The notes below the pieces were generated by a model, which saw only the letters and a program-made list of their open reading frames with translations, searched no databases and was not told where the DNA came from. 64,000 bases of DNA, taken from an uncultured Flavobacteriales bacterium. GTDB lineage: Bacteria; Bacteroidota; Bacteroidia; Flavobacteriales; TMED113. Below, in pieces: positions 23,596 through 64,000 of the stretch (position 1 is its first letter; each line of letters starts with the position of its first letter). Both the position numbers and the translations under genes were made by a program. The stretch spans positions 38,900-102,899 of the forward strand of contig CAYSYA010000002.1 of NCBI GenBank assembly GCA_964435285.1, read 5' to 3'.

Positions 23596-25569
23596 ATGAA
23601 ATTTGATTTAACAAAATTAGAAAATAAAGTAATCTTTGACTTGTACGAAAAGATGCTGAAATCAAGGATGATTGAAGAAAAGATGTTGATTTTACTAAGA
23701 CAAGGTAAAATATCAAAATGGTTTTCAGGAATTGGTCAGGAAGGTATTTCTTCAGGTGTTGTAACAGCATTAGATCAAGATGAATATATACTTCCCATGC
23801 ACAGAAATTTAGGGATTTTTACAGGTAGAAATATTCCCTTAGAAAGATTATTTTCTCAATTTCAAGGAAAAGCAAACGGATTCACAAATGGGAGAGATAG
23901 GTCCTTTCATTTTGGAACTAATGAATTTAGTATAGTTGGTATGATTTCTCATTTAGGTCCTCAATTAGCCTTAGCTGATGGTATTGCTTTAGCTAACAAA
24001 TTAGAAAAAAATAAAAAGGTTTGTGTAGTATTTACTGGGGAGGGAGGGACAAGTGAGGGTGATTTTCATGAAGCTTTAAATGTTGCTTCAGTTTGGTCTT
24101 TACCCGTTATTTTTTTGATTGAAAATAATGGTTATGGTCTTTCAACTCCAACATCAGAGCAATACAACTGTAAAAAGTTATCTGATAGAGGATTAGGATA
24201 TGGTATAGAGTCTAAAACAATTGAGGGTAATAATGTTGTGGAGGTTTACAAAACTATTAAGGAAATTTCTAAAAGAATTAAAGACAAACCTAGACCTTTC
24301 CTTTTAGAATGTAATACTTTTAGAATGAGAGGTCATGAAGAGGCCTCAGGTACTAAATATGTTCCTAATGAATTGTTTAAAAAGTGGTCGAAAAAAGATC
24401 CTGTAGTTAATTTTGAAAAATTTTTAATTAATCAAAAATTATTTACTGAAGAAAAAATTGAAAATACAAAAGCATCAATAAAAAAGGAAATTAATATTGC
24501 AATTGAAAAAGCTTTTAATGAAAGTCAAATTGAATGTGATTTAGATTTTGAAAAATCATCCGTTTTTAGACATCATAATTTTAACCAAATCCAACCTACT
24601 GATAAAAAAAATAATATTCGTTTTGTTGATTCCATTTCTCAAGGACTAAAACAATCACTTGAAAAATTTGATAATTTAATATTTATGGGACAAGACATTG
24701 CGGAGTATGGCGGGGTTTTTAAAATATCTGAAGGATTTGTTGATTTATTTGGAAAAGATAGAATAAGAAATACTCCGATTTGTGAATCAGCAATAGTCAG
24801 TTTGGCTTTGGGTTTATCTGTCAAAGGATATAAGTCTGTTGTTGAAATGCAATTTGCCGATTTTGTTTCAAGTGGTTTTAATCCAATTGTCAATAATTTA
24901 GCAAAAATTCACTACAGATGGGGGCAATGCGCTGATGTAGTTGTTAGAATGCCCTGTGGAGCAGGAGTTGGTGCTGGTCCTTTTCACTCTCAAACAAATG
25001 AGGCGTGGTTTACTCACACTCCTGGTCTTAAAGTTGTTTATCCTGCTTTTCCATATGATGCTAAAGGATTATTAATATCTTCTATTGAAGACCCTAACCC
25101 TGTTATGTTTTTTGAACATAAAGCGCTTTACAGAACTTCTACTCAGGATGTTCCAGAGGATTATTACAACATCCCTCTTGGTAAAGCTAATTTTATTAAA
25201 AGAGGGAATAATTTAAGTATTATTACATTTGGAATGGGTGTTCACTGGGCTTTAGATTATTTAAGTCAAAATGATGTTTCTGTTGATTTGTTAGATTTAA
25301 GAACTTTAGTACCTTTAGATTTAGAATCAATTGAGGAAACAGTCATTAAGACAGGTAAAGTTTTAATTCTTCAAGAAGATAATAATAGGGGAGGTTTTGG
25401 TTCTGACATATCTTCATATATTTCTGAGAATTTATTTGAATATTTAGATGCACCTATTGTTAAAGTTTCTAGTTTAGATACTCCAATACCTTTTACTGAC
25501 TCATTAGAAAAAAATTATTTAGCAAAATCAAGGCTTTCTGAGGCATTTAAGAAGTTATCTGACTATTAG
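23596..25569 (+). CDS. 2-oxoacid (branched-chain type) dehydrogenase E1 component, fused alpha+beta subunits
   Basis: The N-terminal half is E1-alpha with the TPP motif (FTGEGGTSEGDFHEALNVA...ENNGYG). The C-terminal half is E1-beta (FMGQDIAEYGGVFK, FFEHKALY). Both lie in one 657-aa reading frame. Confidence 0.88.
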   Translation: MKFDLTKLENKVIFDLYEKMLKSRMIEEKMLILLRQGKISKWFSGIGQEGISSGVVTALDQDEYILPMHRNLGIFTGRNIPLERLFSQFQGKANGFTNGRDRSFHFGTNEFSIVGMISHLGPQLALADGIALANKLEKNKKVCVVFTGEGGTSEGDFHEALNVASVWSLPVIFLIENNGYGLSTPTSEQYNCKKLSDRGLGYGIESKTIEGNNVVEVYKTIKEISKRIKDKPRPFLLECNTFRMRGHEEASGTKYVPNELFKKWSKKDPVVNFEKFLINQKLFTEEKIENTKASIKKEINIAIEKAFNESQIECDLDFEKSSVFRHHNFNQIQPTDKKNNIRFVDSISQGLKQSLEKFDNLIFMGQDIAEYGGVFKISEGFVDLFGKDRIRNTPICESAIVSLALGLSVKGYKSVVEMQFADFVSSGFNPIVNNLAKIHYRWGQCADVVVRMPCGAGVGAGPFHSQTNEAWFTHTPGLKVVYPAFPYDAKGLLISSIEDPNPVMFFEHKALYRTSTQDVPEDYYNIPLGKANFIKRGNNLSIITFGMGVHWALDYLSQNDVSVDLLDLRTLVPLDLESIEETVIKTGKVLILQEDNNRGGFGSDISSYISENLFEYLDAPIVKVSSLDTPIPFTDSLEKNYLAKSRLSEAFKKLSDY

Positions 25570-37435: not shown

Positions 37436-37999
37436 ATGAATTTATTAATAATTGATGTTTTTGATTCTTTTACTTATAATTTAATGCATATATGTGAAAA
37501 ATATGTAAAAAAAGTTGAAGTAATTAGAGTTGACAAAATTAATATTGATTCAATACAAATTTATGATAAATTAATTTTTTCACCTGGTCCTGGTTTGCCT
37601 TCAGATTACCCTGTATTATTTCAAATACTTCAAAATTATTATCAGTCAAAAGATATTCTTGGGATTTGTTTAGGTTGTCAAGCTATTGCTAACTACTTAG
37701 GAGTAAATTTATTAAATTTAAAAAATGTCATGCATGGTAAAAAAACACTAGTAAAACATTTTAATAATGACAAAAAACTTTACAAAAGTATACCCAATGA
37801 ATTTAATGTAGGTAGATATCATTCATGGGTGGTAAATAATAAAAAAACAAAAGAGTTAATTGTAACTTCAGTTGATAAGTTTAATAATATTATGTCATTC
37901 AAACATAAAAAATATAAATTAAGAGGAATTCAGTATCATCCCGAGTCAATATTGACAGATTATGGTAAAGAAATAATCAAAAATTGGATAAATAATTAG
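37436..37999 (+). CDS. Glutamine amidotransferase component II of anthranilate/aminodeoxychorismate synthase (TrpG/PabA)
   Basis: The track ORF starts at TTG 37430, but the ATG at 37436 gives MNLLIIDVFDSFTYNL. The class I GATase triad is present: GICLGCQ and IQYHPES. Confidence 0.85.
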   Translation: MNLLIIDVFDSFTYNLMHICEKYVKKVEVIRVDKINIDSIQIYDKLIFSPGPGLPSDYPVLFQILQNYYQSKDILGICLGCQAIANYLGVNLLNLKNVMHGKKTLVKHFNNDKKLYKSIPNEFNVGRYHSWVVNNKKTKELIVTSVDKFNNIMSFKHKKYKLRGIQYHPESILTDYGKEIIKNWINN

Positions 38000-40373
38000 A
38001 ATCAAATATATTTTTTTTCTTCTCAATTTTTAAGTCTTTCAAAATATCAGATTTTACTCTAATTACAAAATTGTAACTTTTTCTATTACCAAAAGGAATC
38101 CAGTTAAACAACATTTCCCAACAATGAAGATCTCTATATATATCAAAAGAAGTGAAAGTAAAATCTTTATTTTTTAAATCATAACCAGACCTAAATTTTA
38201 AATTCCATTTTTTAGATAAACCAATTTCACCATCAAAATTTAATGATTGAATTATTTCACTTTGAGTTGTGGGCTTTCTGTAACTTATATTGTAATACAA
38301 ATTTATATTCCATGGAATATGGTATTTGTGTTTTTTACTTTTTTCAAGATTAGTAAATTTCATATTTAAGTTGAAGTTACTACTTGTGATTCTTCCTATT
38401 TTTCCATCTTCAAAATATAACTTATTAATTCTGACCCCACTTTCACTAACTTTGTATGGATCTAATATTGTGTTCATTTGAAAATCAAAATTTTTTGAAA
38501 TTTTATTTCTTATGTTGACATAAATAGGACTTAAATTAAGTGAGTCAACAGCTAAGTTATAGTTTCCGTTAATTGAAAAGTCTTCAAAAATTTTAATTTT
38601 TTTATTTTCTTTATTCTTTAATTTCATTTCAAGATTATTTCTTAAAGAAAATGAAACATTTCCAAATTTCCCTGCTCGAGGAAACCCATAAATTGAACCA
38701 TTATAGTGAGAGTAAATTTCTTGATTGCCAATTGAGTCGTTTTGTACATTGGAATATATTTCCCAGAATTCATTTGAGAAATCTGGATGGTAACTAAAAG
38801 AAATTGAAGGAGTAATTACATGCCTAAAGGTTTTTTTTCTGAAATCAAGAATTCCATATAATTTAGTGCTTGCATTAATTGATAAATTAAAATCTCTTAA
38901 CTGATAAAAACCTGTTAAGGTATCAGAGTAAATTTCATTTAAATTATCATTCCAATTTTGTATATTTTTTTTAAAATACCATCTCTCTGTATAGTTTAAT
39001 GATGGAGATATATTCAAATAATTAAATAGATTAAATGAAGTAGAGATAGGAATAGAATGCTTTACGCCTGATTTAATATTTTTATTAATATTATTAAATA
39101 ATAGACTATCAGGTCTACTTAGTTGTGTCCTCGAATTAACACTATAGCTAAAACCTAAATTTGATAAAAATGATGATTTATTTGATTTATTAAATAATTT
39201 TTGTCTTCCTGTATTAAAGTTTATTTCTGGAATTGTTAAATCAACTTGTTTAGTTAGAGTATTTTGTGAGTGCCTCAATGTTAATGAGAGATTGAAAGGT
39301 TTTCCTTCCCATTTTTTTCTCCAATTAATGTTTGAGGATAAACTATTTTGTAGATAATCATTAGAGTATAAATTATTTTGAGAGTAACTACTTGATGCGA
39401 TATTAACTGAAGCTGAAAATCTAGAATTGGGTCTTAATTTTGGATCTTCTTGATGATTCCATTTAATACTAAAATCATTATTTTGACTAAAATCATTTCT
39501 ATATTTTTCCCCTAATTTTGTTTTAGAAAAGTTAATATTTATTCCACCATTATATTTATATCTTTTTTTATAATTAGAATTAACTCCAAATCTAAAACTT
39601 CCTCTAGTATATAAATCTGTAGTTAATTTTAAATCTACGTAGTCATTTATTCCAAAATAGTAACCTAATTCTTTTAGATTATAGCCTAGAGCAGTAGAAT
39701 TTCCGTAGCTTGGTAATAAAACTCCTGATGATCTTTTATTAGAGATTGGAAAAATAGCAAAGGGTAAAAATATTGGAGTCGGTATATTTTCAATAACAAG
39801 GTTAGCAGGACCTGAAATTATTTTTTCTCCTTCTATGAATTTTACTTTATTTGCTTTTATATAAAAATGTGGCTCTTTATGATTACATGTCGTATATAGT
39901 CCCTTTGACAAATATTGTGTTTTATCTTCAACTTTTTTAACAATATTACCATGTAAATAGCTTTCTCCCTCATTAGTTAGAAGGTTAGTTATTATGCCTT
40001 TTTTAGTTTTGAAATTATATTTAATTGTTTTGGATTTATATTCTTTGCCATTTTCAATAAATATTGGATTTTGAATTAAAATATTATTTGTGTCAATTTT
40101 TCCTTGAGCAAATAAAGTATTCTCTTTTAAATTAATTGTGATAAAGTAAGCTTCAAGATTTATTTTATTATATATGACTTTAGCTTTATTATATAATTTA
40201 ATAACATTATGTTCTAGATCATAAATTATTGAGTCATTGGCAAAATATTCAATTTTTTCATCTAATTCTTTTTTTGGTATTGAGTCGGATTCAAATTCAA
40301 TACTATTCTTGCTAAAAGTAATACCATTAAGTATTATACAAAGACATGTTAGTAATATTTTTTTGTTACTCAA
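37977..40373 (-). CDS. lptD: LptD-like outer-membrane LPS-assembly protein (OstA family)
   Basis: Signal peptide, an N-terminal OstA-like beta-jellyroll region, then ~600 aa with alternating aromatic/polar beta-strand character. It ends ...DSNYLSNF (C-terminal aromatic). It sits divergent to the amidase gene, as I recall for flavobacterial lptD. Confidence 0.6.
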   Translation of the reverse strand: MSNKKILLTCLCIILNGITFSKNSIEFESDSIPKKELDEKIEYFANDSIIYDLEHNVIKLYNKAKVIYNKINLEAYFITINLKENTLFAQGKIDTNNILIQNPIFIENGKEYKSKTIKYNFKTKKGIITNLLTNEGESYLHGNIVKKVEDKTQYLSKGLYTTCNHKEPHFYIKANKVKFIEGEKIISGPANLVIENIPTPIFLPFAIFPISNKRSSGVLLPSYGNSTALGYNLKELGYYFGINDYVDLKLTTDLYTRGSFRFGVNSNYKKRYKYNGGININFSKTKLGEKYRNDFSQNNDFSIKWNHQEDPKLRPNSRFSASVNIASSSYSQNNLYSNDYLQNSLSSNINWRKKWEGKPFNLSLTLRHSQNTLTKQVDLTIPEINFNTGRQKLFNKSNKSSFLSNLGFSYSVNSRTQLSRPDSLLFNNINKNIKSGVKHSIPISTSFNLFNYLNISPSLNYTERWYFKKNIQNWNDNLNEIYSDTLTGFYQLRDFNLSINASTKLYGILDFRKKTFRHVITPSISFSYHPDFSNEFWEIYSNVQNDSIGNQEIYSHYNGSIYGFPRAGKFGNVSFSLRNNLEMKLKNKENKKIKIFEDFSINGNYNLAVDSLNLSPIYVNIRNKISKNFDFQMNTILDPYKVSESGVRINKLYFEDGKIGRITSSNFNLNMKFTNLEKSKKHKYHIPWNINLYYNISYRKPTTQSEIIQSLNFDGEIGLSKKWNLKFRSGYDLKNKDFTFTSFDIYRDLHCWEMLFNWIPFGNRKSYNFVIRVKSDILKDLKIEKKKNIFDSNYLSNF

Positions 40374-40429
40374 AATTTGTTAATCTTATTAATTATCTTA
40401 AAGAGTTGTAAAAATAAAATAATATTCTC

Positions 40430-41581
40430 TTGAAACGATTGGTTTTTATAATTCTTGTGTTTTACTTAATTAATTTTCCCTCAAATATATATTCTCAAGA
40501 AAATGATTATTTTAATTTAAAAACAGTTGTTATAGACCCAGGGCATGGTGGAAAAGATCCTGGTAGTATAGGAACTGGAAGATATAAGGTTTATGAGAAA
40601 GATATTTCTCTTGATATTTCATTGAAATTAGGAAGATATATTAAAAGTCATTTTCCAGAAATTAATGTAATATATACAAGAGAAAATGATGAATTTGTTA
40701 AATTATATGAAAGATCTCAAATAGCTAACAAAAACAATGCTGATTTATTTATCTCAATTCATTGTGATGCATTTACTAATGAAAACGCTTCAGGTTCATC
40801 CACATATGTAATGGGTCCTCATAAATCTGATAGTAATCTTCAAATTGCAATGAGAGAAAATTCATCAATTTTAATGGAAGAAGATTTTGAGTTGGACTAC
40901 GCAGGATTTAACCCTAATGAACCAGAATCTTACATTGCTTTAAACATGTATCAATCTAAATATATTGGATATGCTTTAGATTTTGCATCTAAAGTACAGA
41001 ATGAATTTTCAAAATCATCAGATAGAAAAAATCGAGGAGTTAAACAAGCAGGTTTTTTGGTTTTAAGTAAAACAACAATGCCTAGTGTTCTTATTGAGGT
41101 TGGTTTTATAACAAATAAAATTGAAGAAGACTATTTAATTTCTCAAAATGGTAAAGATGAGGTAGCAAAATCAATTTTTGAGGCATTCTGTAGTTATAAA
41201 AAGCAAATTGATTTTCTAACAGAGAATAGTAAAAACAATTTGATTTTAAATGATTCAGTTAAATCCAGTTCCCTCAACATTAATGATAATACAGATAGCT
41301 TTGATAACATAGATACCTTTTTAACCGTTCAATTTTTTGCATCAAGAGATTCAATTCAATTCAACAGCAATGAATTGAATGATGATTTAATTTTTTGTAT
41401 AAGAGAAAATTCTCTTTATAAATATTTTTATGGTAAATCAAACTCATATAATAAAATTAAAAATCTTCAAAACAAATTGAAAAAATATGGTTTTTTTGAT
41501 AGTTTCATAGTGGGATTTTTTAACAAAAATAAAGCAGAATTGAGCAAAGTTTTGTCTATTTTAGATAAAGAAAATGACTGA
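40430..41581 (+). CDS. N-acetylmuramoyl-L-alanine amidase (Amidase_3) with C-terminal SPOR-like domain
   Basis: TTG start with no nearby in-frame ATG. A signal peptide is followed by VIDPGHGGKDPG and SIHCDA. The C-terminal ~80 aa (LTVQFFASRD...YKYFYGKSNSYNKIKNLQNKLKKYGFFDSFIVGFF) fits the SPOR pattern. Confidence 0.8.
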   Translation: MKRLVFIILVFYLINFPSNIYSQENDYFNLKTVVIDPGHGGKDPGSIGTGRYKVYEKDISLDISLKLGRYIKSHFPEINVIYTRENDEFVKLYERSQIANKNNADLFISIHCDAFTNENASGSSTYVMGPHKSDSNLQIAMRENSSILMEEDFELDYAGFNPNEPESYIALNMYQSKYIGYALDFASKVQNEFSKSSDRKNRGVKQAGFLVLSKTTMPSVLIEVGFITNKIEEDYLISQNGKDEVAKSIFEAFCSYKKQIDFLTENSKNNLILNDSVKSSSLNINDNTDSFDNIDTFLTVQFFASRDSIQFNSNELNDDLIFCIRENSLYKYFYGKSNSYNKIKNLQNKLKKYGFFDSFIVGFFNKNKAELSKVLSILDKEND

Positions 41582-41583
41582 GC

Positions 41584-42456
41584 ATGTTAAACAAAGAATT
41601 TTTTTTAGGAATCATATGTCTTGTAGCAGGAATTGCATTGTTTTTTGGAATTAAATTTCTATCTGGAGACAATAATCCACTGTTTAACAATAATAAATTT
41701 TATGTTAAATATGATAATATTGATGGTTTAGAAAAATCCAATGATATAACAATCAATGGTGGAGTAATTGGTCAGGTAACTGATTTGATTTTAATTCCAT
41801 CTAATAATTCGTGGTTAGTTGAGTTAACTATTGATGAGCCAAAAGTATTAGGTCAATTAACTAAACAATCCTTATTTGAAATTCAAGACGATGGTTTTTT
41901 AGGAACTAAAATAATTCTTTTGAAGTTAGCACCTGGCGATAAAGTTTTTCCAGGAGACACTTTAAATGGCTCATCAAATGGTTTAATGTCACAATTCTCT
42001 CGTCAGTTTGATGGATTTGATATTCAGCAAGTAGTTTCTCCAATTTTAGAACTTTTAGAGAAAATTACCACTTTAACTAATGATATTGATAGAATTATAG
42101 TTAGTAATGAAAAAAATGTTAACGGAATAATTTCAAATTCTGAAAATATTGTAAAAAGTTTATCAAAAAATGCTAAAAACTTTAATAATTTAATCAATAA
42201 TTTGTCGGATTTTAGTAACGAATTATCATCTTTTTCATTACCTGAAATTTCTGTTAACTTGAATAATGATTTAAAAAAACTTAATTCTATTTTAAATAAA
42301 ATTGATCAGGGAAATGGTTCTGTAGCTAAAGCAATCAATAGTGATGACTTAATAGAAGAATTTGAAGCAACTTTAAAAAGTATTAAATCTTTGGTTGAAG
42401 ATTTTGAAAAAAACCCAAAAAAATACTTTAAAGAAATTAAACTCTTGAGAAAATAG
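41584..42456 (+). CDS. MlaD/MCE-domain protein
   Basis: N-terminal TM, then the MCE core (YVKYDNIDGLEKSNDITINGGVIGQVTDL) and a long C-terminal helical region. No MlaE/MlaF genes are adjacent. Confidence 0.75.
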   Translation: MLNKEFFLGIICLVAGIALFFGIKFLSGDNNPLFNNNKFYVKYDNIDGLEKSNDITINGGVIGQVTDLILIPSNNSWLVELTIDEPKVLGQLTKQSLFEIQDDGFLGTKIILLKLAPGDKVFPGDTLNGSSNGLMSQFSRQFDGFDIQQVVSPILELLEKITTLTNDIDRIIVSNEKNVNGIISNSENIVKSLSKNAKNFNNLINNLSDFSNELSSFSLPEISVNLNNDLKKLNSILNKIDQGNGSVAKAINSDDLIEEFEATLKSIKSLVEDFEKNPKKYFKEIKLLRK

Positions 42457-42466
42457 TTTAAACATT

Positions 42467-43798
42467 ATGGAGTACTTAATTAAATATAAATTTCAAATTT
42501 TATTTTTTTTAATTTTATCAGGAAACCTGTTTCTTTTTTATAGAAATTTTAAAAAAATTTTCAGAAATATTAATCTTGGTAAAAAAAATGTTTCTTCAGA
42601 TAATAAAAAAGAAAGATGGAAAAGAGTTTTGTTTATTGCTTTTGGTCAGTCAAAAATGTTTGATAAACCCTTAGTAGCTATTTTACATTTAATTGTTTAC
42701 TTAGGCTTCATCATTATTAATATTGAATTAATTGAAATAATTATTGATGGTTTATTTGGTACTCACAGAGTTTTATCCTTTTTAGGTTCCTTCTATAATT
42801 TTTTGATAGCTAGTTTTGAAATACTTGCTTTTCTTGTTCTAATATGCGTTGTAATTTTTTTAATAAGAAGAAATATAATAAAAGTTAAAAGATTTTTAAG
42901 TTCTGAAATGAAGGGTTGGCCAACACTAGATGGTAATTTAATTTTAATTTTTGAAATTTTATTAATGCTTGCTTTTCTTACAATGAATGCAGCAGATTCA
43001 ATTTTACAAGTAAATTATCCAGAAAAATATATAAATGTTGGTTTATTTCCAATCAGTAATTTTTTAATAGTCCCCTTTATAGAAAATTTAAGTACTCAAA
43101 CATTAATTTTTCTAGAGCGCTTTTGTTGGTGGTTTCACATTATCGGAATTTTAGGTTTTTTAAACTATTTAGCTATTTCTAAACATCTTCATATTCTTTT
43201 AGCATTTCCAAGTACCTATTATTCTAAATTAACTCCCAAAGGTCAATTTAATAATATGAGTTCTGTTACTAAAGAAGTTGAAATTATGTTGAATCCTAAT
43301 ACTGACCAGTTTTCTCAATCTTCACCAGAACAAGTAGAAACTTTTGGAGCTAAAGACGTTAAAGATTTAAATTGGCTTCAGCTTTTAAATTCTTATTCGT
43401 GTACTGAATGTGGTCGATGTAGCGCTGAATGCCCTGCGAATGTCACTGGTAAAAAATTATCTCCTAGAAAAATCATGATGGATGTTAGAGACAGGCTTGA
43501 AGAGGTAGGAAAAGGAATTGATAAAAATGGTTCTGATTTTAATGATGGTAAAACATTATTAAACGATTATATAACTCATGAAGAATTATGGGCATGTACC
43601 TCTTGTAATGCCTGCGTTGAAGTATGTCCAATAAATATTGATCCACTTTCTATAATTATGGATCTTAGAAGATATGCTGTTATGGAAGAATCTTCTGCTC
43701 CCACAGATTTAAATACTGTGTTTTCAAATATTGAGAATAATGGTGCACCTTGGCCTTTTCCCTCTTCAGATAGATTAAAATGGACAAAAAATGAATAA
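42467..43798 (+). CDS. Integral-membrane Fe-S protein: ~6 TM His-containing domain + 2x[4Fe-4S] ferredoxin domain (HdrE/DsrM-plus-ferredoxin-like)
   Basis: The hydrophobic N-terminal ~260 aa has His in TM contexts (AILHLIVY, WWFHIIGIL, SKHLHILLAF). The C-terminal motifs are CTECGRCSAECP and CTSCNACVEVCP. Confidence 0.75.
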   Translation: MEYLIKYKFQILFFLILSGNLFLFYRNFKKIFRNINLGKKNVSSDNKKERWKRVLFIAFGQSKMFDKPLVAILHLIVYLGFIIINIELIEIIIDGLFGTHRVLSFLGSFYNFLIASFEILAFLVLICVVIFLIRRNIIKVKRFLSSEMKGWPTLDGNLILIFEILLMLAFLTMNAADSILQVNYPEKYINVGLFPISNFLIVPFIENLSTQTLIFLERFCWWFHIIGILGFLNYLAISKHLHILLAFPSTYYSKLTPKGQFNNMSSVTKEVEIMLNPNTDQFSQSSPEQVETFGAKDVKDLNWLQLLNSYSCTECGRCSAECPANVTGKKLSPRKIMMDVRDRLEEVGKGIDKNGSDFNDGKTLLNDYITHEELWACTSCNACVEVCPINIDPLSIIMDLRRYAVMEESSAPTDLNTVFSNIENNGAPWPFPSSDRLKWTKNE

Positions 43799-44222
43799 AA
43801 TTAAACTGATTGATAAAGCAATTGATGGTAATAATATTAGTCCTGTTTTACCTGAAAAAATTAAAAATTATTTAATTGATATTGACGGTACAATTTGTGA
43901 CGATATTCCAAATGAAGAACCTGAACGAATGGAAGACGCAAAAGTATATCCTGAGGCCTTAATAACACTCAATAAGTGGTTTAATGAAGGTCACATTATT
44001 ACTTTTTTTACTTCAAGACTAGAAATTCATAGGCAGGTTACGGAAAATTGGCTAAATAAACATGGTTTTAAATATCATGGTTTACTAATGAATAAACCAA
44101 GAGGGGGTAACTATCATTGGATTGATAATCATATGGTTAGAGCTACTCGATATCAAGGGAAATTTACCGATCTAGTTGAAAAAAATATAAAAATTCAAGT
44201 ATTCAAAGAAGATGGAAATTAA
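43791..44222 (+). CDS. Small HAD-superfamily-like phosphatase (DxDGT)
   Basis: 143 aa. HAD motif I is YLIDIDGTICDD. A candidate motif II Thr/Ser lies in IITFFTSR, and a later Lys and acidic residues occur in NKPRGG...HWIDNH. It overlaps the upstream gene by 8 nt and the downstream gene by 11 nt. Confidence 0.55.
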   Translation: MNKIKLIDKAIDGNNISPVLPEKIKNYLIDIDGTICDDIPNEEPERMEDAKVYPEALITLNKWFNEGHIITFFTSRLEIHRQVTENWLNKHGFKYHGLLMNKPRGGNYHWIDNHMVRATRYQGKFTDLVEKNIKIQVFKEDGN

Positions 44223-45042
44223 AGTAAAAACCATGTCTGAATGGCAACAAGAAGGGAAAGAACCAGAGATCTTATTTTGGGTAGGTTCTGCTGGGAGCTT
44301 TGATGAAAGAGCAAAAAAAATTACCAGAGAATTTGTTAATATTTTAAATTTTTGTCGTATTGATTTTGGTGTATTGGGAACTGAAGAGTCAGCAAGTGGT
44401 GATGTAGCTAAACGTTCAGGAAATGAATTTCTATTTCAAATGCAAGCATTAATGAATATTCAAGTTTTAAATAGTTATAAAATTAATCGAATTGTAACAA
44501 CTTGTCCTCATGATTATAATACTATAAAAAATGAATATAAATCTTTAGGTGGTGTTTATGAAGTTTATCACCACACTGAATTTATTTCAGAATTAATTAA
44601 AAGTAATAAATTAAATCTCAATGAAATTTACAATGACGCAATAATTACTTATCATGATCCATGTTATTTGGGTAGAGGAAATAATATTTATAAATCTCCT
44701 CGAGAATTATTGCGAAATTCAGGAGCTAAAATTAGTGAAATGAAAAGATTTAAAAATAAATCTTTTTGTTGTGGTGCTGGTGGTGCTCAAATGTTTAAGG
44801 AACCTGAAAAAGGTAATCAAGATATAAATATTAATCGAACTAAAGAAGCTTTAGATACTCTAGGTTTTAATTTAAATAAATTAGACACTAATTTTAAAAA
44901 AAAGAGAAAAATTATTGCAACTGGTTGCCCATTTTGTAACACAATGTTAACAGATGGTATAAAAAATCAAAATAAAGAATCTGAAGTGGAAGTTTTAGAT
45001 ATTGTTGAAATTATTTCAAAAGCCAAAAAAGATTTTTTATGA
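44212..45042 (+). CDS. Cysteine-rich CCG-domain (Fe-S)-binding protein (HdrD/DsrK/GlpC C-terminal-like)
   Basis: There are two Cys-rich modules. The first is VTTCPHDYNT...HDPCYLGRG. The second is KSFCCGAGGAQM...ATGCPFCNTM. No TM segment is present. Confidence 0.75.
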   Translation: MEIKVKTMSEWQQEGKEPEILFWVGSAGSFDERAKKITREFVNILNFCRIDFGVLGTEESASGDVAKRSGNEFLFQMQALMNIQVLNSYKINRIVTTCPHDYNTIKNEYKSLGGVYEVYHHTEFISELIKSNKLNLNEIYNDAIITYHDPCYLGRGNNIYKSPRELLRNSGAKISEMKRFKNKSFCCGAGGAQMFKEPEKGNQDININRTKEALDTLGFNLNKLDTNFKKKRKIIATGCPFCNTMLTDGIKNQNKESEVEVLDIVEIISKAKKDFL

Positions 45043-45539
45043 AAGATTTCATTAGTGAAAAGATAAATTCTTATAATTCTAATTCTAGATTGTGGATCTT
45101 TCAATCTTTAATTTTATTAACAAATAATGAAAAAGAAATTATTTCTAATAAATTAAATAACTTTTTTGATAATTGGGATGCTCATGGAAAAAAATTAAAA
45201 AGTTCAAGTTTTTTTGTTTATTCTAATTTCTTAATTGTTTTAGTTGACTCAAGCAAAGTAAGTCCTACTGGTTGCGCAATTGATAAGCTTTTTAATAAAA
45301 TTAAAGACATAGGAATTAAAATAAATAAAAGTTTAATTAATAATAATTTTATTGCCTATAAATTAAATGATTCAGAATCGATATATTTTTTAAACTTATT
45401 TGATTTTAAAAAACACATAAAAGATAAATTAATATTAGATTGTGTTGTTTTTGATAATTCAATTTCGACTATTGAACAATTAAAAAATTCTTGGTTAATA
45501 AGTATTGAAGAATGGAGAAAAAAGTATATTAATAATTAA
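45039..45539 (+). CDS. Hypothetical protein (166 aa), last gene of the Fe-S/CCG operon
   Basis: The start overlaps the upstream stop (ATGA), and a hairpin terminator follows. It has no Walker motif and no TM segment, and I recognise no domain. Confidence 0.55.
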   Translation: MKDFISEKINSYNSNSRLWIFQSLILLTNNEKEIISNKLNNFFDNWDAHGKKLKSSSFFVYSNFLIVLVDSSKVSPTGCAIDKLFNKIKDIGIKINKSLINNNFIAYKLNDSESIYFLNLFDFKKHIKDKLILDCVVFDNSISTIEQLKNSWLISIEEWRKKYINN

Positions 45540-45541
45540 AT

Positions 45542-45578
45542 CAAAAAAAAAGGACTCATAATGAGTCCCTTTTTTTTG
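45542..45578. terminator. Bidirectional Rho-independent-type terminator between convergent operons
   Basis: The sequence is A9-GGACTC-ATAAT-GAGTCC-C-T8. A GC-containing 6-bp stem is flanked by an A-tract and a T-tract that could extend the pairing. It lies between the 45539 (+) and 45598 (-) gene ends. Confidence 0.75.
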
Positions 45579-45597
45579 ATCTCTTTAGTTTATTTCT

Positions 45598-46263
45598 CTA
45601 AAAGAATAAGCTAAAGTTTACACCAGCGATGAAACTAGAACCAGATAAGTCAACAGACTCATTACCAGTACTTACTCTTTCACCATCAACAATTAAGTCA
45701 AGTGCAACGTAAGGCTCTATAGCAATGTGTTCTCTCATTACAAGTGTGTAACCCATTCCAAAACCAACGTGAGTTGATTGAGATCTAGATTGCATAACTC
45801 CTTCTGTTTGTACTAATGATATATTACCACCAGCATCAACTTCGAAAGAACTCATAGTTCCCCATTCTTCAGATTGAGTTGTACTACTTGACATATTTAC
45901 TTCCATAAATAAGTTTCTAGCAGCATAGTATCTTCCGAATACACCGAATGTTCTAGAGTTATTTGTAAGAGTATATTCATCGTGAGCACCAATAATTTCA
46001 GTAGCACCAGTTACTGCATTAGGTACAGCAATACCATCATAAGATGGGAAGTACTGATCATCAGTGTTAAAATGAATCATTGCTCCTAAAGCTAAACCAT
46101 CTTGGATAAAGTATCCAATTTTTGGAGTGATAGCTAAATCAGTCCATGATGTTTCGCTTAATTGAGATCCCGCACCTAAAAGGATAGTACCTTTTTTAGT
46201 TTGTGCGTTAGTAGAGAATAACATAACAGTTACCGCTACAAAAGTTAAAATAATTCTTTTCAT
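45598..46263 (-). CDS. Small outer-membrane beta-barrel protein (porin/OmpA-barrel-like), probably highly expressed
   Basis: Signal peptide MKRIILTFVAVTVMLFSTNAQ, alternating beta-strand pattern, and a C-terminal ...GVNFSLFF. Its GC and codon choice look noticeably different from its neighbours by eye. It has its own upstream gap and a terminator. Confidence 0.7.
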   Translation of the reverse strand: MKRIILTFVAVTVMLFSTNAQTKKGTILLGAGSQLSETSWTDLAITPKIGYFIQDGLALGAMIHFNTDDQYFPSYDGIAVPNAVTGATEIIGAHDEYTLTNNSRTFGVFGRYYAARNLFMEVNMSSSTTQSEEWGTMSSFEVDAGGNISLVQTEGVMQSRSQSTHVGFGMGYTLVMREHIAIEPYVALDLIVDGERVSTGNESVDLSGSSFIAGVNFSLFF

Positions 46264-46400: not shown

Positions 46401-47861
46401 TCAGAACCTTTTTTCATCAAATCTGTTAATAAAACCATCTAAAATACGTGATTCGTTATTAATTAAACTTTTAGGTGTATATATAGCTTGTGGTAATGAT
46501 AAGAATGAAATATTTTTTATTTCATTGTCTTCGAAATTGATTGAAATACTACTGCACAAAATATCATTTACTCCACTAATTCTTTCTTTCAAATCAGTCT
46601 CAAAGTACTTTAACTCAGTATTTCCTTGTAAAGTAATTTTGTGAAGATTACCCTCTTTAAAATTTCCAAATAATTTTTTTCCTTTTATTTGATCAAAATA
46701 ATCATCAATTTTTTTGGAAGTAATGAAGCTGTTATTAGGAATATAAATGCTATCTAGAGTTTCATTTTTTGTAAAAAGGAAAATAGTATCGCCACTTATT
46801 TGACTTTTTTTTGTCCAAAGTACAGGGTTTTCCATCAAACAAATAGTTTCTGCTTTGAAATTAAATATGGAATTTTTGCATTTTCCTTGAATTGAATCAC
46901 TTGTTATGTATGTTTTGTTGATTACATATAATAAAGAGTCATTATCATTTAGTTTCATTATCTCACCCTCAACTATTATTTCTGAACTATTTTCAGATTT
47001 AAATTTTATTTTTGGTTTACCTGTAAATTCAGAAGTTCCATTAAACTCATTAAATGTTTCACAAAATATTTGTATGTTATTCTCTTGTTCTATTTCAATA
47101 TTACCAAACAAACTTGTTTTTTTATCATTATTATAAAAAATACTATCACAGTTAATGACTCTTTGTTCAGTTTTAATAAATCCATTTCCCCACACACTTA
47201 AATTTTCTTCTTTTTTATCATAAACACCCAAGTTTCCCATAATAAACATATTATCAGAAGATATTTTGGATCTACTATTTAAGAATATAATTTCATTTTT
47301 ATTATCTATATCTAAATTATCTGATTCAATTATATACTTACTCGTTTTCATATTCACATTTTCACTAAATTGTCCAAATTCATCTTTTGTGTGAAATTTG
47401 CCTATTTTACTTATTATGGTATTATAATTGTCAGTTAGTTTTCCTCCATTGTTGTAATAAACTATTTTTTTATCAGGATTATAGCTTAAATAATCTGTTG
47501 TGATTTTATTTTTATTTTTAGTGAAAACAACTTTTTGAGAAAAATTAATTAAAGTATCATTTTTCAAAAATTCAATTTTTTTTGATTCAATTTTTGAACC
47601 TTTATTATCTAATATTATAGAACTCTTTACACTATTGACTTTAACGTATTTTCCATCTTTTGAAATATATATTGTATCACAGTATAATTTATGCTTCTTA
47701 AATTGAGCAATTACATCACCACAAAACATGTCAAATTCGGTATTATTTATTTTGATGTTTTGCAAAAAATTAGATTGAAGAATATTTATTTCTTTTTGGG
47801 AAAATGAATTGAAAAACAAAAGTATGAATACAAAAAAAATATCGTGTTTTTTTTTGAACAT
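46401..47861 (-). CDS. OstA/LptA-like periplasmic beta-jellyroll repeat protein
   Basis: Signal peptide, then repeated patterns resembling the OstA N-terminal fold (D.i.y......a.f.g.V.i........l.ad.). The function is tentative. Confidence 0.45.
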   Translation of the reverse strand: MFKKKHDIFFVFILLFFNSFSQKEINILQSNFLQNIKINNTEFDMFCGDVIAQFKKHKLYCDTIYISKDGKYVKVNSVKSSIILDNKGSKIESKKIEFLKNDTLINFSQKVVFTKNKNKITTDYLSYNPDKKIVYYNNGGKLTDNYNTIISKIGKFHTKDEFGQFSENVNMKTSKYIIESDNLDIDNKNEIIFLNSRSKISSDNMFIMGNLGVYDKKEENLSVWGNGFIKTEQRVINCDSIFYNNDKKTSLFGNIEIEQENNIQIFCETFNEFNGTSEFTGKPKIKFKSENSSEIIVEGEIMKLNDNDSLLYVINKTYITSDSIQGKCKNSIFNFKAETICLMENPVLWTKKSQISGDTIFLFTKNETLDSIYIPNNSFITSKKIDDYFDQIKGKKLFGNFKEGNLHKITLQGNTELKYFETDLKERISGVNDILCSSISINFEDNEIKNISFLSLPQAIYTPKSLINNESRILDGFINRFDEKRF

Positions 47862-60092: not shown

Positions 60093-61025
60093 ATGAAGTA
60101 CAACAAATTATTTTTTTTTCTCATTTGTTTATTAGGTAACTTTGTTTATTCACAACAACTACCTTTAAACAGTCAGTACATATATAATCCATTAGTTATT
60201 AATCCTGCATTTTCTGGAATAACTGAATCTTCTTCAATAATTTTAATGAATAGAAATCAATGGACTGGTTTTGTAGATGAACCTATAAGAACCACTTCCA
60301 TTGCTGCTCATCATGCCTTAAACAATCAAAAACATGGATTAGGTTCTCTACTTTTTTCAGATAGAACAGGGGCAATAAACATTCATGGATTGGATTTAAT
60401 GTACTCATTTAAATTTCCAATTTTTTTGAACTATAATTTATCTTTAGGTATTTCAGGTAATATATATCAGTACGTTTTTGATGATTCTAATTTAAATACT
60501 GCCACATTTGATCCAATTTTGAATGGTGAAATTCAAAAAAAAATAAATTTTGATTCCAACTTTGGTTTTCTTGTTTATGATGATTTTTTATTTTTTGGAG
60601 CTTCTATTGTTAATTTGATTCAATCAAAGGTATTGACACAAGATATTAATGGACCCAATCAATTCGCTAGAAATTATTATTTTTTTGGTGGATATAATTT
60701 TACTGATGAAGTAACAAAAATTGGTTTTGAACAAAGCTTTCTATTAAAAAAGACAGAGTATACAGATTTTCAATATGACATAAATTTAAAAGCTATTTTT
60801 AATAATATTTTTTGGTTAGGTGCTGGATATAGAAGTAATGATGAATTAATTGCTCTTTTTGGCTTTAACTACGATAAATTTTCTTTGATTTATTCGATTG
60901 ATTATAATTATGGAGAAATAGGTAATTACTCTGGAGCTTCTCATGAATTTTCACTAGTTTTTTACTTCAGAAAAGGTTCTAATATCAACTGGGAAAATAA
61001 TAGAATTTTATTTGAAAATTTTTAA
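60093..61025 (+). CDS. PorP/SprF-family type IX secretion system membrane protein
   Basis: Signal peptide, then QQLPLNSQYIYNPLVINPAFSG, the family N-terminal signature. A ~300-aa beta-barrel-like protein ending in an aromatic-rich C-terminus. Confidence 0.8.
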   Translation: MKYNKLFFFLICLLGNFVYSQQLPLNSQYIYNPLVINPAFSGITESSSIILMNRNQWTGFVDEPIRTTSIAAHHALNNQKHGLGSLLFSDRTGAINIHGLDLMYSFKFPIFLNYNLSLGISGNIYQYVFDDSNLNTATFDPILNGEIQKKINFDSNFGFLVYDDFLFFGASIVNLIQSKVLTQDINGPNQFARNYYFFGGYNFTDEVTKIGFEQSFLLKKTEYTDFQYDINLKAIFNNIFWLGAGYRSNDELIALFGFNYDKFSLIYSIDYNYGEIGNYSGASHEFSLVFYFRKGSNINWENNRILFENF

Positions 61026-62041
61026 ATTTTATATCTGCAATCAGGACTTATTTGGATATTTGAAAATTCTTTTTTTCTGAATTTATAATAACCCGATAAC
61101 GCAATCATAGCAGCATTATCCGTTGAGTACTCTATTTTTGGAAAATATGATTTTATTTTTAATTCATTTTCAAGTTTTTTAATCTCTGACCTAAAGTATT
61201 TATTAGAGGCGACTCCACCAGCAATAGCAACATTTTTGACATTATTCATTATAATTGCTCTTTTTAACTTATTAACGAGAGTAGTTACTATTATTTTTTG
61301 TATTGATGCACAAAGATGATGTATATTTTCTTTAATGAAATTTTTATTTTTTCCCATTTCTTTTTTTAAAAACATAAATATTTGAGTTTTTAATCCACTA
61401 AAACTAAAATTTAAATTATCAACATTAGGTTCCGTAAAAATAAATTTATTACAATCTCCTCCAATTGATTTTTTTTCAATTAATGGTCCGCCGGGATATC
61501 CTAATCCTAATAATTTTGCTGATTTATCAAATGCTTCCCCAGCTGAATCATCAAGAGTTTGACCAATAACGCTCATATCTTCTATACTTTTTACTGATAC
61601 TATCTGAGTATGTCCTCCAGAGACTGTCAAGCATAGAAAAGGAAAACTTGGGGGATTAAAATTTTTGTTTTCAATAAAATTAGCAATAACATGGGCCCTC
61701 ATGTGATTAATTTCAATTAGAGGTATTTTTAGACTTAAAGATAAACTTTTTGCAAATGAACATCCTACTAATAATGAACCCAATAATCCAGGTCCCCTAG
61801 TAAAAGCGATTGCATTTAGTTGATTTTTTTTAATATTTGCTATCTTTAAAGCTAGAGAGGTAACAGGTACTATATTTTTTTGATGAGATCTGGATGCAAG
61901 TTCAGGGACAACTCCACCATATTTTTGGTGAATTTTTTGACTTGATACAATATTTGATAGTACTTTTCTGTTATTAGTAATAGCAACTGATGTATCATCA
62001 CAAGATGATTCAATCCCAAGTATGTATATGTCTTTTTTCAT
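61022..62041 (-). CDS. tsaD: tRNA N6-adenosine threonylcarbamoyltransferase
   Basis: ILGIESSCDDTSVA, VSGGHTQ and GYPGGP are typical Kae1/TsaD blocks. Confidence 0.93.
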   Translation of the reverse strand: MKKDIYILGIESSCDDTSVAITNNRKVLSNIVSSQKIHQKYGGVVPELASRSHQKNIVPVTSLALKIANIKKNQLNAIAFTRGPGLLGSLLVGCSFAKSLSLSLKIPLIEINHMRAHVIANFIENKNFNPPSFPFLCLTVSGGHTQIVSVKSIEDMSVIGQTLDDSAGEAFDKSAKLLGLGYPGGPLIEKKSIGGDCNKFIFTEPNVDNLNFSFSGLKTQIFMFLKKEMGKNKNFIKENIHHLCASIQKIIVTTLVNKLKRAIIMNNVKNVAIAGGVASNKYFRSEIKKLENELKIKSYFPKIEYSTDNAAMIALSGYYKFRKKEFSNIQISPDCRYKI

Positions 62042-62064: not shown

Positions 62065-64000
62065 TTGATTATTAGACAAAATATAAAAAAAATTGTTTTT
62101 TTGCTTATTGTACTATTTAGTATTTTAACAACTCTATTTGGGATAATTAATTCGTCTTTATTTCAAAAAAAAATATTTAATTTATTTTCTAAAAATATAA
62201 ACGAAAATCACTCTATTTTATTAGAGTCAAATAATTTTTACTACAATATTTTTTCTAATAAAATTTCTTGCAATTTTTTAATATTAGATCATTTTCAAAA
62301 TCCAATGATAAATATTCCTAATATTTCAATTGGTTTTAATAATAACATCATTTTTTCAAAATCTGATATAAAAATTAATAATGTTAATATTGAAAACGTA
62401 GATTTTTTCATTAATAAATATGAATCAGATTCTATTACTAATTTTGAATTATTCATAAATAAGATTTCAAATGAAAATTCTACTAATTTAGACTCACTTT
62501 ATATTGAAAATATTAATTTATCTATTTCTAATTTTATCTTCCAGAATCAATTGGATACTATTAAATTTAATGATTTTTCTTTTGATTTAAATAAAATTAA
62601 TTACTCTAATAATAATGGTTGCAATATTGAAAATATTTTTTTTCAGAAAAATAATTCGTTTTTTGCTTCTTCTTTAAACCAAGATAAATCAAAAAGCAAA
62701 TTTTTCGTAGATATTATTGATAGTAAGTTTTACTTAAAAGATTTTATTAATCAAAAATTTAATAATAATGAATTCATCAATTTTTCCTCAATCCTTTCAT
62801 TTAATAAAAATATTTTTAGTTTAGAAAATCTTAATATAAATTACAATCATTCATTTTTGAATGGTATTTTCTCTTATGATAGTAGTCTAGATTTATATTT
62901 TCTTCAGATAAATAATTCAATTATTAAAAAACAAGATCTTTTATCATTTTCAATGAAGAATAAAATAGATTTCCCTTCTATATTACTTGATTTAGGAGAT
63001 ATTAAATATATAGGAAAAACTGTATTATATAATAGAAATTTAGATATCGAAAGTAATATAAATTCAGATTACGGTTTCTCTAATCTTAATTTAAAATTTC
63101 ACTTCCCCGACAGTTTAAATAATCCATCTTTTGTTGGAACTATTGATTTTAACAAATTTAATTTAGGGAGCTTACTTAATTTTAAAAATTTAGGCGAAGT
63201 TAATTTTAAGACTAAAATTAATGGTTCAGGTTTAGATAAGGATAACTTCTTTGCAAATATAAGCTTTCAAGAAGCCAAAATATTTTTTGATAATTATTAT
63301 TATAATAATTTTTCATTAAATGCAGATTTAAGTTACAATTTACTTAGAGGGGATTTAAGGATTAATGACAGGAACTGTAAAGTTCAATTAAATGGCGAAT
63401 TAGATTTTTCAGACAACAATAAAATAATTAATGTTTCTTCAAAAGTAAAAAAAATCAATTTAGATAAAATTAAATTTTTAACAGGTCAACCTATCAAACA
63501 ATTTTCTGGAAATATTACTGCAAATTTAAAGGGAAATTCAATTGATAATTTAATTGGTTCAATAGAAGCTAATAAATTATCTTACTATAGAGGAAAAAAA
63601 TACAATTTAAATAATTTAAAGATTGATTTTAATAATTCATCAATTAATAAGTCTTTATTGTTTAAATCTGATATAGGTTCTGCATTTCTTACAGGAGATT
63701 TTAAATATTTAGATTTAAATAAAGATTTTAAGAATGTATTTTTATCTTTTTTAAAGAACGAAAAAAAAATATTCAAAAGTGATTATAATTTAGATTTAGA
63801 TTTAGATTTTAATAATTCATCCTTTCTCACAGACTTTTTTTTAGATAATTTTTCTCTTGAAAAGTTTAATTTAAAAATAAATAAAAAGAAATTAAGCTCT
63901 AATTTATTTATAATGGGAGATTTAGAGAGTTTGTCTTTTAATAATAAATTTTTTGATAATTTAAATTTTGATTTAGAGATTAATAATCATGATAAATTAA
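62065..64000 (+). CDS. tamB: Large envelope protein, TamB/AsmA-like (N-terminal 645 codons; continues beyond right window edge)
   Basis: I read this frame codon by codon from 62065 to 64000 and found no stop; an in-frame TAA sits at 62059-62061. The N-terminal TM segment (IVFLLIVLFSILTTLFGII) lies upstream of the first ATG (62305), so the TTG at 62065 is the likely start. The rest is long, Asn-rich and beta-repeat-like. It sits divergent to tsaD, as I recall for flavobacterial tamB. It is absent from the ORF track because no stop lies in the window. Confidence 0.6.
   Translation, partial: MIIRQNIKKIVFLLIVLFSILTTLFGIINSSLFQKKIFNLFSKNINENHSILLESNNFYYNIFSNKISCNFLILDHFQNPMINIPNISIGFNNNIIFSKSDIKINNVNIENVDFFINKYESDSITNFELFINKISNENSTNLDSLYIENINLSISNFIFQNQLDTIKFNDFSFDLNKINYSNNNGCNIENIFFQKNNSFFASSLNQDKSKSKFFVDIIDSKFYLKDFINQKFNNNEFINFSSILSFNKNIFSLENLNINYNHSFLNGIFSYDSSLDLYFLQINNSIIKKQDLLSFSMKNKIDFPSILLDLGDIKYIGKTVLYNRNLDIESNINSDYGFSNLNLKFHFPDSLNNPSFVGTIDFNKFNLGSLLNFKNLGEVNFKTKINGSGLDKDNFFANISFQEAKIFFDNYYYNNFSLNADLSYNLLRGDLRINDRNCKVQLNGELDFSDNNKIINVSSKVKKINLDKIKFLTGQPIKQFSGNITANLKGNSIDNLIGSIEANKLSYYRGKKYNLNNLKIDFNNSSINKSLLFKSDIGSAFLTGDFKYLDLNKDFKNVFLSFLKNEKKIFKSDYNLDLDLDFNNSSFLTDFFLDNFSLEKFNLKINKKKLSSNLFIMGDLESLSFNNKFFDNLNFDLEINNHDKL

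Follow-up and report, generated by a model that had tools for sequence, protein, structure and literature searches.

The window analysed here is a 64-kb stretch (64,000 nucleotides, GC about 27%) of contig CAYSYA010000002.1 from an uncultured Flavobacteriales bacterium. Our subject is a pair of its genes, 42467 and 44212 (named, like the other genes, by start position), which very probably code for an ETF:menaquinone oxidoreductase (ETF, electron transfer flavoprotein) naturally divided into two halves. The pair lies in a run of six co-directional open reading frames (ORFs) at 40430-45539 (+), whose successive junctions measure 2, 10, -8, -11 and -4 nt. The run and the element that ends it comprise the following features.

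40430..41581, + strand: amidase (Amidase_3), 383 aa, first gene of the run; Pfam PF01520, E 4.2e-54
41584..42456, + strand: MlaD/MCE-domain protein, 290 aa; PF02470
42467..43798, + strand: predicted EtfD/EMO N-half, transmembrane (TM) plus ferredoxin domains, 443 aa; matches PDB 9OJN residues 31-475
43791..44222, + strand: predicted small cap-less HAD-superfamily phosphatase, 143 aa, between the two halves
44212..45042, + strand: predicted EtfD/EMO C-half, NCB (CCG) domain, 276 aa; matches PDB 9OJN residues 496-741
45039..45539, + strand: 166-aa protein (unk166) of an uncatalogued family, without Pfam or NCBIfam match
45552..45568, both strands: hairpin terminator GGACTCATAATGAGTCC followed by a T-run, from a terminator scan; flanked by A- and T-runs

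These data confirmed the layout given by an initial annotation of this DNA, namely five co-directional ORFs with tight junctions behind an amidase gene and a hairpin at their end. The G+C-rich hairpin starts 13 nt past the last stop codon and is also terminator-like on the - strand, so that it forms a bidirectional terminator common to the run and to the convergent outer membrane protein gene at 45598-46263. No Bacteroidota-type promoter (TTG-N17-21-TAnnTTTG) was found on the + strand in 40300-45650, and a sigma-70 promoter scan performed no better than shuffled sequences, so that neither scan placed the transcription start. The amidase is a context gene outside the oxidoreductase proper, and the SPOR domain once ascribed to it was not found by Pfam at E <= 0.01.

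Both genes of the pair matched, collinearly, one and the same 1042-aa chain, 9OJN_A ("iron-sulfur-binding reductase"), in a phmmer search against the PDB, 42467 aligning to residues 31-475 (E 1.1e-39) and 44212 to residues 496-741 (E 3.2e-61). The next-best solved relatives were the heterodisulfide reductase subunits HdrC for 42467 (4.7e-6) and HdrB for 44212 (0.067). Pfam assigned 42467 to several dicluster Fer4 families through the motifs CTECGRCSAECP (residues 312-323) and CTSCNACVEVCP (residues 377-388), and 44212 to CCG (PF02754, E 4.9e-17). Further Foldseek analysis of an AlphaFold2 (AF2) model of the C-half (pLDDT 83.5) again returned 9OJN as the top match (E 2e-22, TM-score 0.76, 39% identity), about 13 orders of magnitude ahead of the second best, LutA (1.7e-9), with HdrB reaching 1.9e-8 at best. 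In NCBIfam the pair showed sub-threshold likeness to TfrB, LdhH, GlcF and GlpC, in every case far under the curated cutoffs; membership of the LutA/GlcF/GlpC group failed by a wide distance (GlcF 23.4 against a cutoff of 333, GlpC 20.7 against 278).

The chain 9OJN is EtfD of Mycobacterium smegmatis (PMC13083937), here MsEtfD (Rv0338c / MSMEG EtfD; alias MsEMO). In M. tuberculosis, genetic work identified EtfD (Rv0338c) as a membrane oxidoreductase that re-oxidises acyl-CoA dehydrogenases together with EtfBA (PMC8593149). Cryo-electron microscopy (cryo-EM) of MsEtfD revealed five TM helices, one heme b held by His78/His241, a putative menaquinone site at Phe85/Phe230, two cubane clusters, a non-cubane [4Fe-4S] cluster, D2, bound by five Cys and His583, and a linear [3Fe-4S] cluster, D1, bound by Cys503/538/581/584 (PMC13083937). 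The EMO of Syntrophus aciditrophicus (SaEMO) follows the same three-domain plan, and its structure with ETF has been solved (bioRxiv 10.64898/2026.08.18.745454). The window pair presents the same order as MsEtfD, with a 5-TM NarI-type domain, two cubane [4Fe-4S] sites and an NCB/CCG domain. Judged by sequence, it is close to certain that the pair falls within the EtfD/EMO family, the ETF:(methyl)menaquinone oxidoreductases.

The initial annotation had recognised a quinone-linked, HdrDE-like architecture in which a membrane domain with b heme is combined with two cubane clusters and a CCG domain; this description stands. Its proposal of an oxidoreductase of unknown substrate in an undescribed system does not, for the pair sits inside a characterised family, EtfD/EMO, whose partner genes lie elsewhere: etfAB was absent from the window and from 80 related loci. 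These loci come from named genomes of Flavobacteriaceae, Weeksellaceae, Crocinitomicaceae, Cryomorphaceae and Pedobacter, in which the homologs of 15 window genes were located. The oxidoreductase is a variant of a known system, and the earlier claim of an undescribed redox system fails.

To map the cofactor sites, window residues were aligned to the published ligands of MsEtfD (9OJN; PMC13083937), and an exhaustive search of 1.84 billion representatives supplied 121 fused relatives for comparison. The heme His pair is kept as H74 and H242 (H78 and H241 of 9OJN), as it is in 115-117 of the 121 fused representatives. The menaquinone-site Phe residues are kept as F81 and F231 (F85 and F230 of MsEtfD), and the heme-propionate residues Arg137 and Arg306 of MsEtfD correspond to R135 and R317. 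The window protein appears to be mono-heme, like MsEtfD, because the helix carrying H74 bears no second His. Hydropathy analysis of 42467 gave about five TM segments, in agreement with the 5-TM NarI-type domain of EtfD; of the earlier description of this gene, the two ferredoxin motifs were upheld, but not the roughly six TM helices. All eight cubane Cys are present (C312/315/318/322 and C377/380/383/387). The N-half is accordingly predicted to carry a NarI-type membrane domain, a b-heme His pair, menaquinone-site aromatics and two cubane sites.

In the C-half, all six ligands of the proximal non-cubane cluster (D2) are kept: H100, C151, C186, C187, C239 and C242. H100 is the equivalent of MsEtfD H583, the His specific to EtfD/EMO that takes the place of the catalytic bridging Cys of Hdr. 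The D2 ligands were invariant in the 120 closest homologs, in all 80 loci and in the 121 fused representatives. The heme His pair, the menaquinone Phe pair, the eight cubane Cys and the five Cys plus His of D2 are thus all common to MsEtfD and the window pair. The distal cluster (D1) is different: C503 is replaced by S26, C538 by A61 and C584 by D101, and C98 alone is kept. The initial annotation had rightly called 44212 a CCG protein but had given it two CCG modules; Pfam found one CCG stretch (residues 145-246). The first module is degenerate because three of its four Cys ligands are replaced, and therefore the four Cys motifs that had been listed serve essentially one cluster, not two. Apart from being split at the linker and lacking three of the four D1 ligands, the window enzyme differs from MsEtfD in having no counterpart of its disordered C-terminal region of ~30 kDa.

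Comparison with fused relatives located the split precisely. Beyond the close group, the nearest relatives are single chains of 650-750 aa with 45-54% identity, and 121 of them keep the ligands of heme, cubanes and D2 almost without exception. One of them, P0249, is a fused Chitinophagaceae homolog of 696 aa. N-half residues 10-442 align to its residues 5-437 (52% identity) and C-half residues 3-273 to its residues 438-696 (48% identity), so that the halves abut at 437/438 with nothing missing and nothing duplicated. The polypeptide is broken within the linker that joins the HdrC-like domain to the NCB domain. Although EtfD and EMO are one-polypeptide enzymes, the halves are separate ORFs in 77 of the 77 evaluable related loci, and the HAD phosphatase gene sometimes occupies the break point. 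Fused forms with intact D1 occur in other Bacteroidota, namely in Chitinophagaceae (the P0249 cluster) and Bacteroidales (P0247). The fission of EtfD is new.

Loss of the D1 ligands extends to all 120 closest homologs. Among the 80 species-representative loci, however, 67 keep all four Cys (CCCC), Pedobacter included, and 13 are D1-less, the latter including Polaribacter, Tenacibaculum, Wenyingzhuangia, Muricauda/Flagellimonas and Thalassobellus; this count rules out D1 loss as a Flavobacteriales-wide trait. CCCC was the pattern of 105 of the 121 fused representatives; another 11 had CCCG, in agreement with SaEMO, where Gly535 stands for one Cys (bioRxiv 10.64898/2026.08.18.745454). Congeneric species can differ in D1 state. 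In two Flagellimonas loci (L008 and L044), the C-half lies at 10001-10771 in the same syntenic slot and reads SSTDS in the former versus CCCC in the latter. With the ligand columns masked, the D1-less C-halves, which come from several genera, formed one clade in a neighbour-joining tree, yet the flanking genes co-clustered the D1-less loci weakly. One loss followed by spread and repeated loss are inseparable on these trees; they hint at allele replacement or repeated loss, and horizontal replacement of a D1-less allele is not claimed on such a combination. Compensation of the loss by unk166 or the HAD protein was rejected, as no association appeared (D1-less versus intact loci: HAD 4/13 versus 28/67, unk166 8/13 versus 59/67).

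D1 loss is no novelty either. FadF of Bacillus subtilis and DgcB of Pseudomonas aeruginosa, whose roles connect them with beta-oxidation and an ETF-linked pathway, have already been described as lacking the D1 Cys, and direct transfer from ETF to D2 was inferred for them (PMC13083937). By that description, as opposed to an alignment, both resemble the window pair in lacking the D1 Cys, keeping D2 and having a short or absent C-terminal tail; they were not reported to be split (PMC13083937). In the complex of SaEMO with ETF, as solved by cryo-EM, the FAD (flavin adenine dinucleotide) lies 12 A from FeS3 (equivalent to D2) and 13 A from FeS4 (bioRxiv 10.64898/2026.08.18.745454). The two non-cubane clusters are about equally far from it, in support of a direct entry of electrons at the proximal one. 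A D1-less enzyme is plausible because of this 12 A distance and because FadF and DgcB lack the D1 Cys.

SaEMO shares the architecture, including the His that blocks the proximal non-cubane cluster, in a chain of similar length (706 aa; 443 + 276 aa here). Unlike the window enzyme, SaEMO contains a twin-heme unit, with three hemes in all, and a distal cluster of the [4Fe:5S] type; it runs a reverse redox loop and belongs to an anaerobe. The window protein, in contrast, shows a single His pair and lacks a distal cluster, and in an aerobe its electrons would be expected to flow downhill to menaquinone.

Two side observations concern relatives of the C-half. At L089:1-12118, a complete nuoB-N-type complex I operon is followed after 17 nt, on the same strand, by the gene of a fused D1-less homolog, P0405 (705 aa), whose TM domain matches Pfam Nitrate_red_gam; we counted the position of this homolog directly behind a nuo operon in favour of the EtfD/EMO assignment. 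At L085:8001-9728, a 268-aa CCG protein of Marinifilaceae with intact D1 has no adjacent TM/ferredoxin half, and its gene is directly followed by one for a UbiA-family prenyltransferase, possibly of quinone biosynthesis.

The ETF-acceptor role, which rests on homology to three characterised members, is the most likely one for the pair. In the proposed mechanism, acyl-CoA dehydrogenases of fatty-acid and branched-chain amino-acid catabolism would load EtfAB, encoded elsewhere, and reduced EtfAB would dock on the cytoplasmic C-half. The FAD would then hand electrons one by one straight to the proximal non-cubane [4Fe-4S] cluster, from which they would travel via both cubane clusters of the N-half to heme b and finally to menaquinone in the membrane; the reduction of menaquinone would feed the aerobic respiratory chain. 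The amidase, MlaD and HAD proteins would be co-transcribed envelope or housekeeping neighbours, not subunits. Flavobacteriia use menaquinone-6. The window also encodes a BCKDH-type E1 fusion, Lpd and fumarylacetoacetase, and we counted these genes of acyl-CoA-generating catabolism in favour of an ETF role. The E1 gene at 23596-25569 (+) encodes a 657-aa protein in which E1 alpha (E1_dh) and E1 beta (Transket_pyr + Transketolase_C) of a BCKDH-type 2-oxoacid dehydrogenase are fused.

Several points weigh against this assignment. The distal cluster site is missing, with three of the four D1 Cys lost, and R150 of MsEtfD aligns to a Glu. No etfA, etfB or acyl-CoA dehydrogenase gene was found in the 64-kb window or within +/-10 kb in the 80 loci, and probes for etfAB, fixC and MlaE gave no match in either set; in mycobacteria, likewise, etfAB is unlinked to etfD. 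The conservation of the operon with MlaD and amidase, and its tight overlaps, are left unexplained by an EtfD function. Finally, our literature searches found no paper linking EtfD to Bacteroidota, no fitness data, and no biochemistry or genetics on a member of the family from this phylum.

An alternative is that the pair serves as the membrane electron-acceptor module of one specific dehydrogenase rather than as a general ETF acceptor, in the manner of DgcB for dimethylglycine, GlpC for glycerol-3-P, LutA for lactate and GlcF for glycolate. The EtfD homolog DgcB is tied to a single pathway, that of dimethylglycine, and the sub-threshold NCBIfam likeness to TfrB, LdhH, GlcF and GlpC and the second rank of LutA among the fold matches point the same way. 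However, the NCBIfam scores lie far under their cutoffs, the match to EtfD surpasses those to LutA and HdrB by more than 12 orders of magnitude, and DgcB itself is thought to receive its electrons via ETF. Neither DgcA nor any of the partners GlpAB, LutBC and GlcDE was found beside the pair in the window or the 80 loci. We therefore regard a donor-specific module as unlikely.

The neighbourhood of the probable split ETF:menaquinone oxidoreductase is strongly conserved within Flavobacteriales. There the N-half adjoins the C-half in 69 of 70 loci, MlaD lies upstream of the pair in 62 of 64, amidase in 59 of 61, and a divergent LptD gene is present in 54 of 56. The HAD gene stands between the halves in 31 of 70 loci, and unk166 lies <=300 bp from the C-half in 55 of 74, with 6 more within 6 kb. 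In the window, the conserved LptD position is taken by 37977-40373 (-), which encodes a 798-aa LptD_2 protein and is divergent from the amidase gene. On the other side, 46401-47861 (-) encodes a 486-aa protein with OstA_2 and LptD_N/LptA domains, so that lipopolysaccharide-transport-type genes flank the cluster on both sides.

Beyond the order the arrangement dissolves. In five Pedobacter genomes only the halves are adjacent; MlaD (0/5), amidase and LptD are absent beside the pair, and unk166 lies 0.7-4.3 kb from the C-half behind an opposite-strand gene (5/5 loci). The fused Chitinophagaceae etfD stands alone except for a gene of the 166-aa family 8 kb downstream, and a fused Bacteroidales gene has neither envelope neighbours nor unk166 beside it. 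The genetic coupling to MlaD, amidase and LptD that the initial annotation had proposed was thus borne out as a co-conserved order in Flavobacteriales but is absent in Pedobacter, Chitinophagaceae and Bacteroidales; likewise, its five genes are co-conserved across the loci within Flavobacteriales, with the exception of the HAD gene, found between the halves in fewer than half of them. Since the linkage is absent in these three groups, it reflects how genes are ordered in Flavobacteriales and does not belong to the enzyme as such.

The protein encoded by 41584 had been read as MlaD/MCE without an MlaE permease nearby, and both points held: PF02470 scored 36.8 bits against a cutoff of 25.1, and no MlaE was found in the window or within +/-10 kb in any of the 80 loci. 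A single TM segment anchors it at the N-terminus (residues 8-26) and is followed by the MCE domain (residues 36-113); the C-terminal region is long and helical and is matched by TIGR00996 (Mtu_fam_mce) with E 1.1e-10, under its curated cutoff. The bona fide MCE domain, the anchor and the helical C-terminal extension are as in Mla/MCE systems (MlaFEDCB, actinobacterial Mce). The protein differs from MlaFEDCB in lacking MlaE, MlaF, MlaC and MlaB nearby, scored 42.9 bits on the MlaD equivalog against a cutoff of 135, and does not qualify as a member of an Mla system, with no MlaE in the window and the 80 loci and MlaF-like matches in two loci only.

The DIDGT motif noted earlier in 43791 was substantiated by a match to LNS2_PITM1-3 (37.6 bits, cutoff 27.7), and the protein is, by its motifs, assigned as a small cap-less HAD-superfamily phosphatase. 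The residues of all four HAD motifs (D30, D32, T34, T74/S75, K102 and D112/N113) are invariant in 27 orthologs, and with 64-84% identity across families it is the most conserved protein of the cluster. In the PDB it has the weak relatives 1xpj and 9iqw (a capsule biosynthesis protein); small cap-less HADs, this capsule protein and PNK-type phosphatases are its nearest relatives, each with a marginal score. A lipin-type phosphatidate phosphatase was considered and set aside, because the LNS2 match is weak and is equalled by capsule-/sugar-phosphate and PNK-type phosphatases.

The initial annotation had seen no recognisable motif in 45039, in line with our searches, in which unk166 had no Pfam, NCBIfam or PHROG match and none of 38 orthologs rose above noise in Pfam; the family is named "hypothetical" in every source. 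W19, F42, W46, H49, G78, C79 and D82 are invariant. The AF2 model is confident (pLDDT 93.8, pTM 0.88), and Foldseek found no PDB match for it at E <= 1e-3. The family reaches Longimicrobiaceae, where it does not lie near etfD. Homology to the long C-terminal tails of fused and mycobacterial EtfDs was rejected, as no BLAST similarity was found. These data indicate that unk166 represents a new, uncatalogued family with persistent proximity to etfD across three Bacteroidota classes, and it is possibly an EtfD-associated accessory factor. In the five Pedobacter loci (L053:11467-15427; L052, L057, L058 and L076), the genes directly after unk166 encode an 806-aa protein of the AsmA family and a peptidoglycan transglycosylase of the monofunctional type, a second, independent envelope/lipid-transport neighbour for the family.

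The operon could also be a real unit linking envelope lipid handling to respiration. The orphan MCE protein would then retrieve or import lipid, the small HAD phosphatase would process a lipid or sugar phosphate, and the split EtfD would dispose of the beta-oxidation electrons, with unk166 as a new accessory subunit or maturation factor. Such a unit would parallel the mycobacterial Mce1/Mce4-EtfD axis. Taken together, these parts make an improbable scheme.

It is very unlikely that the five or six genes form a single envelope module in which a quinone-linked redox enzyme of this kind is coupled to MCE lipid trafficking and cell-wall remodelling. The order amidase-MlaD-N-half-(HAD)-C-half-unk166 is kept across four Flavobacteriales families with overlapping start and stop codons, unk166 directly precedes AsmA and the peptidoglycan transglycosylase in Pedobacter, and mycobacterial MCE transporters import lipids whose oxidation needs EtfD. 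However, MlaD, amidase and LptD are not beside the pair in the lineages named above, neither MlaE nor MlaF lies nearby, and the enzyme family has a defined, unrelated function. Moreover, homology to 9OJN and SaEMO places the Fe-S domains on the cytoplasmic side, whereas a periplasmic position of the MCE domain is expected from its N-terminal anchor and the established Mla topology.

A membrane-bound heterodisulfide/thiol reductase of the HdrDE type can hardly be entertained: public sources name the pair "CoB--CoM heterodisulfide reductase" (CoB, coenzyme B; CoM, coenzyme M), and the HdrE+HdrC+HdrB domain set is common to both, but Hdr depends for its catalysis on two non-cubane clusters that have bridging Cys and are accessible to solvent, of which the distal site is gone here and the substrate position at the proximal site is blocked by the EtfD/EMO-type His100, the HdrB and HdrC matches (0.067 and 4.7e-6) are weak, and an aerobic flavobacterium would have no CoM or CoB. 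The aligned ligand pattern effectively refutes an Hdr function. The modules of methanogen HdrDE are indeed homologous, with a membrane part that binds b heme, a dicubane domain like HdrC and an NCB domain like HdrB, and HdrDE also consists of two polypeptides. The split is different, since HdrE is the membrane part only and HdrD a C+B fusion, whereas here the membrane and C parts are fused and B is separate; the two catalytic non-cubane clusters and the open substrate cavity of Hdr both appear to be lacking in the window protein.

Four other observations were made in the window. The gene at 9046-10980 (+) encodes a 644-aa protein with at least 7 CxxCH motifs (Cytochrome_C7, Paired_CXXCH, c3/c554-like) and C-terminal TPR, a multiheme cytochrome c in an aerobic-type flavobacterium. 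The gene at 16899-19841 (+) encodes a 980-aa fusion of an N-terminal GH3 domain (NagZ-like) and a beta-lactamase/transpeptidase-like domain, which may act in peptidoglycan recycling. The last 2 kb (62065-64000, +; GC 0.19) form one open frame of at least 645 aa that runs off the end, with an N-terminal hydrophobic segment and no Pfam match, near tsaD (61022-62041, -) and a PorP/SprF gene (60093-61025, +). ARAGORN found no tRNA or tmRNA gene in the whole window.

The pair is widespread in public data, where sampled names in marine Flavobacteriales and Pedobacter are "CoB--CoM heterodisulfide reductase", "(Fe-S)-binding protein" and "Fe-S oxidoreductase". The split form would have escaped the published surveys of EtfD, in which more than 75% coverage was demanded. 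The unk166 family, with its confident model, its invariant His/Cys/Asp signature and the lack of a solved structural relative, is a concrete uncharacterised target. For the enzymology of EtfD/EMO, the pair would provide a natural experiment in which the NCB domain is a separate polypeptide, and the loss of the distal cluster in one clade, while relatives in the same slot keep it, supports direct delivery from ETF to the proximal cluster. The EtfD/EMO assignment offers a specific candidate for the link from ETF to menaquinone in aerobic Bacteroidota, and would bear on the respiration of fatty acids and branched-chain amino acids by abundant marine flavobacteria.

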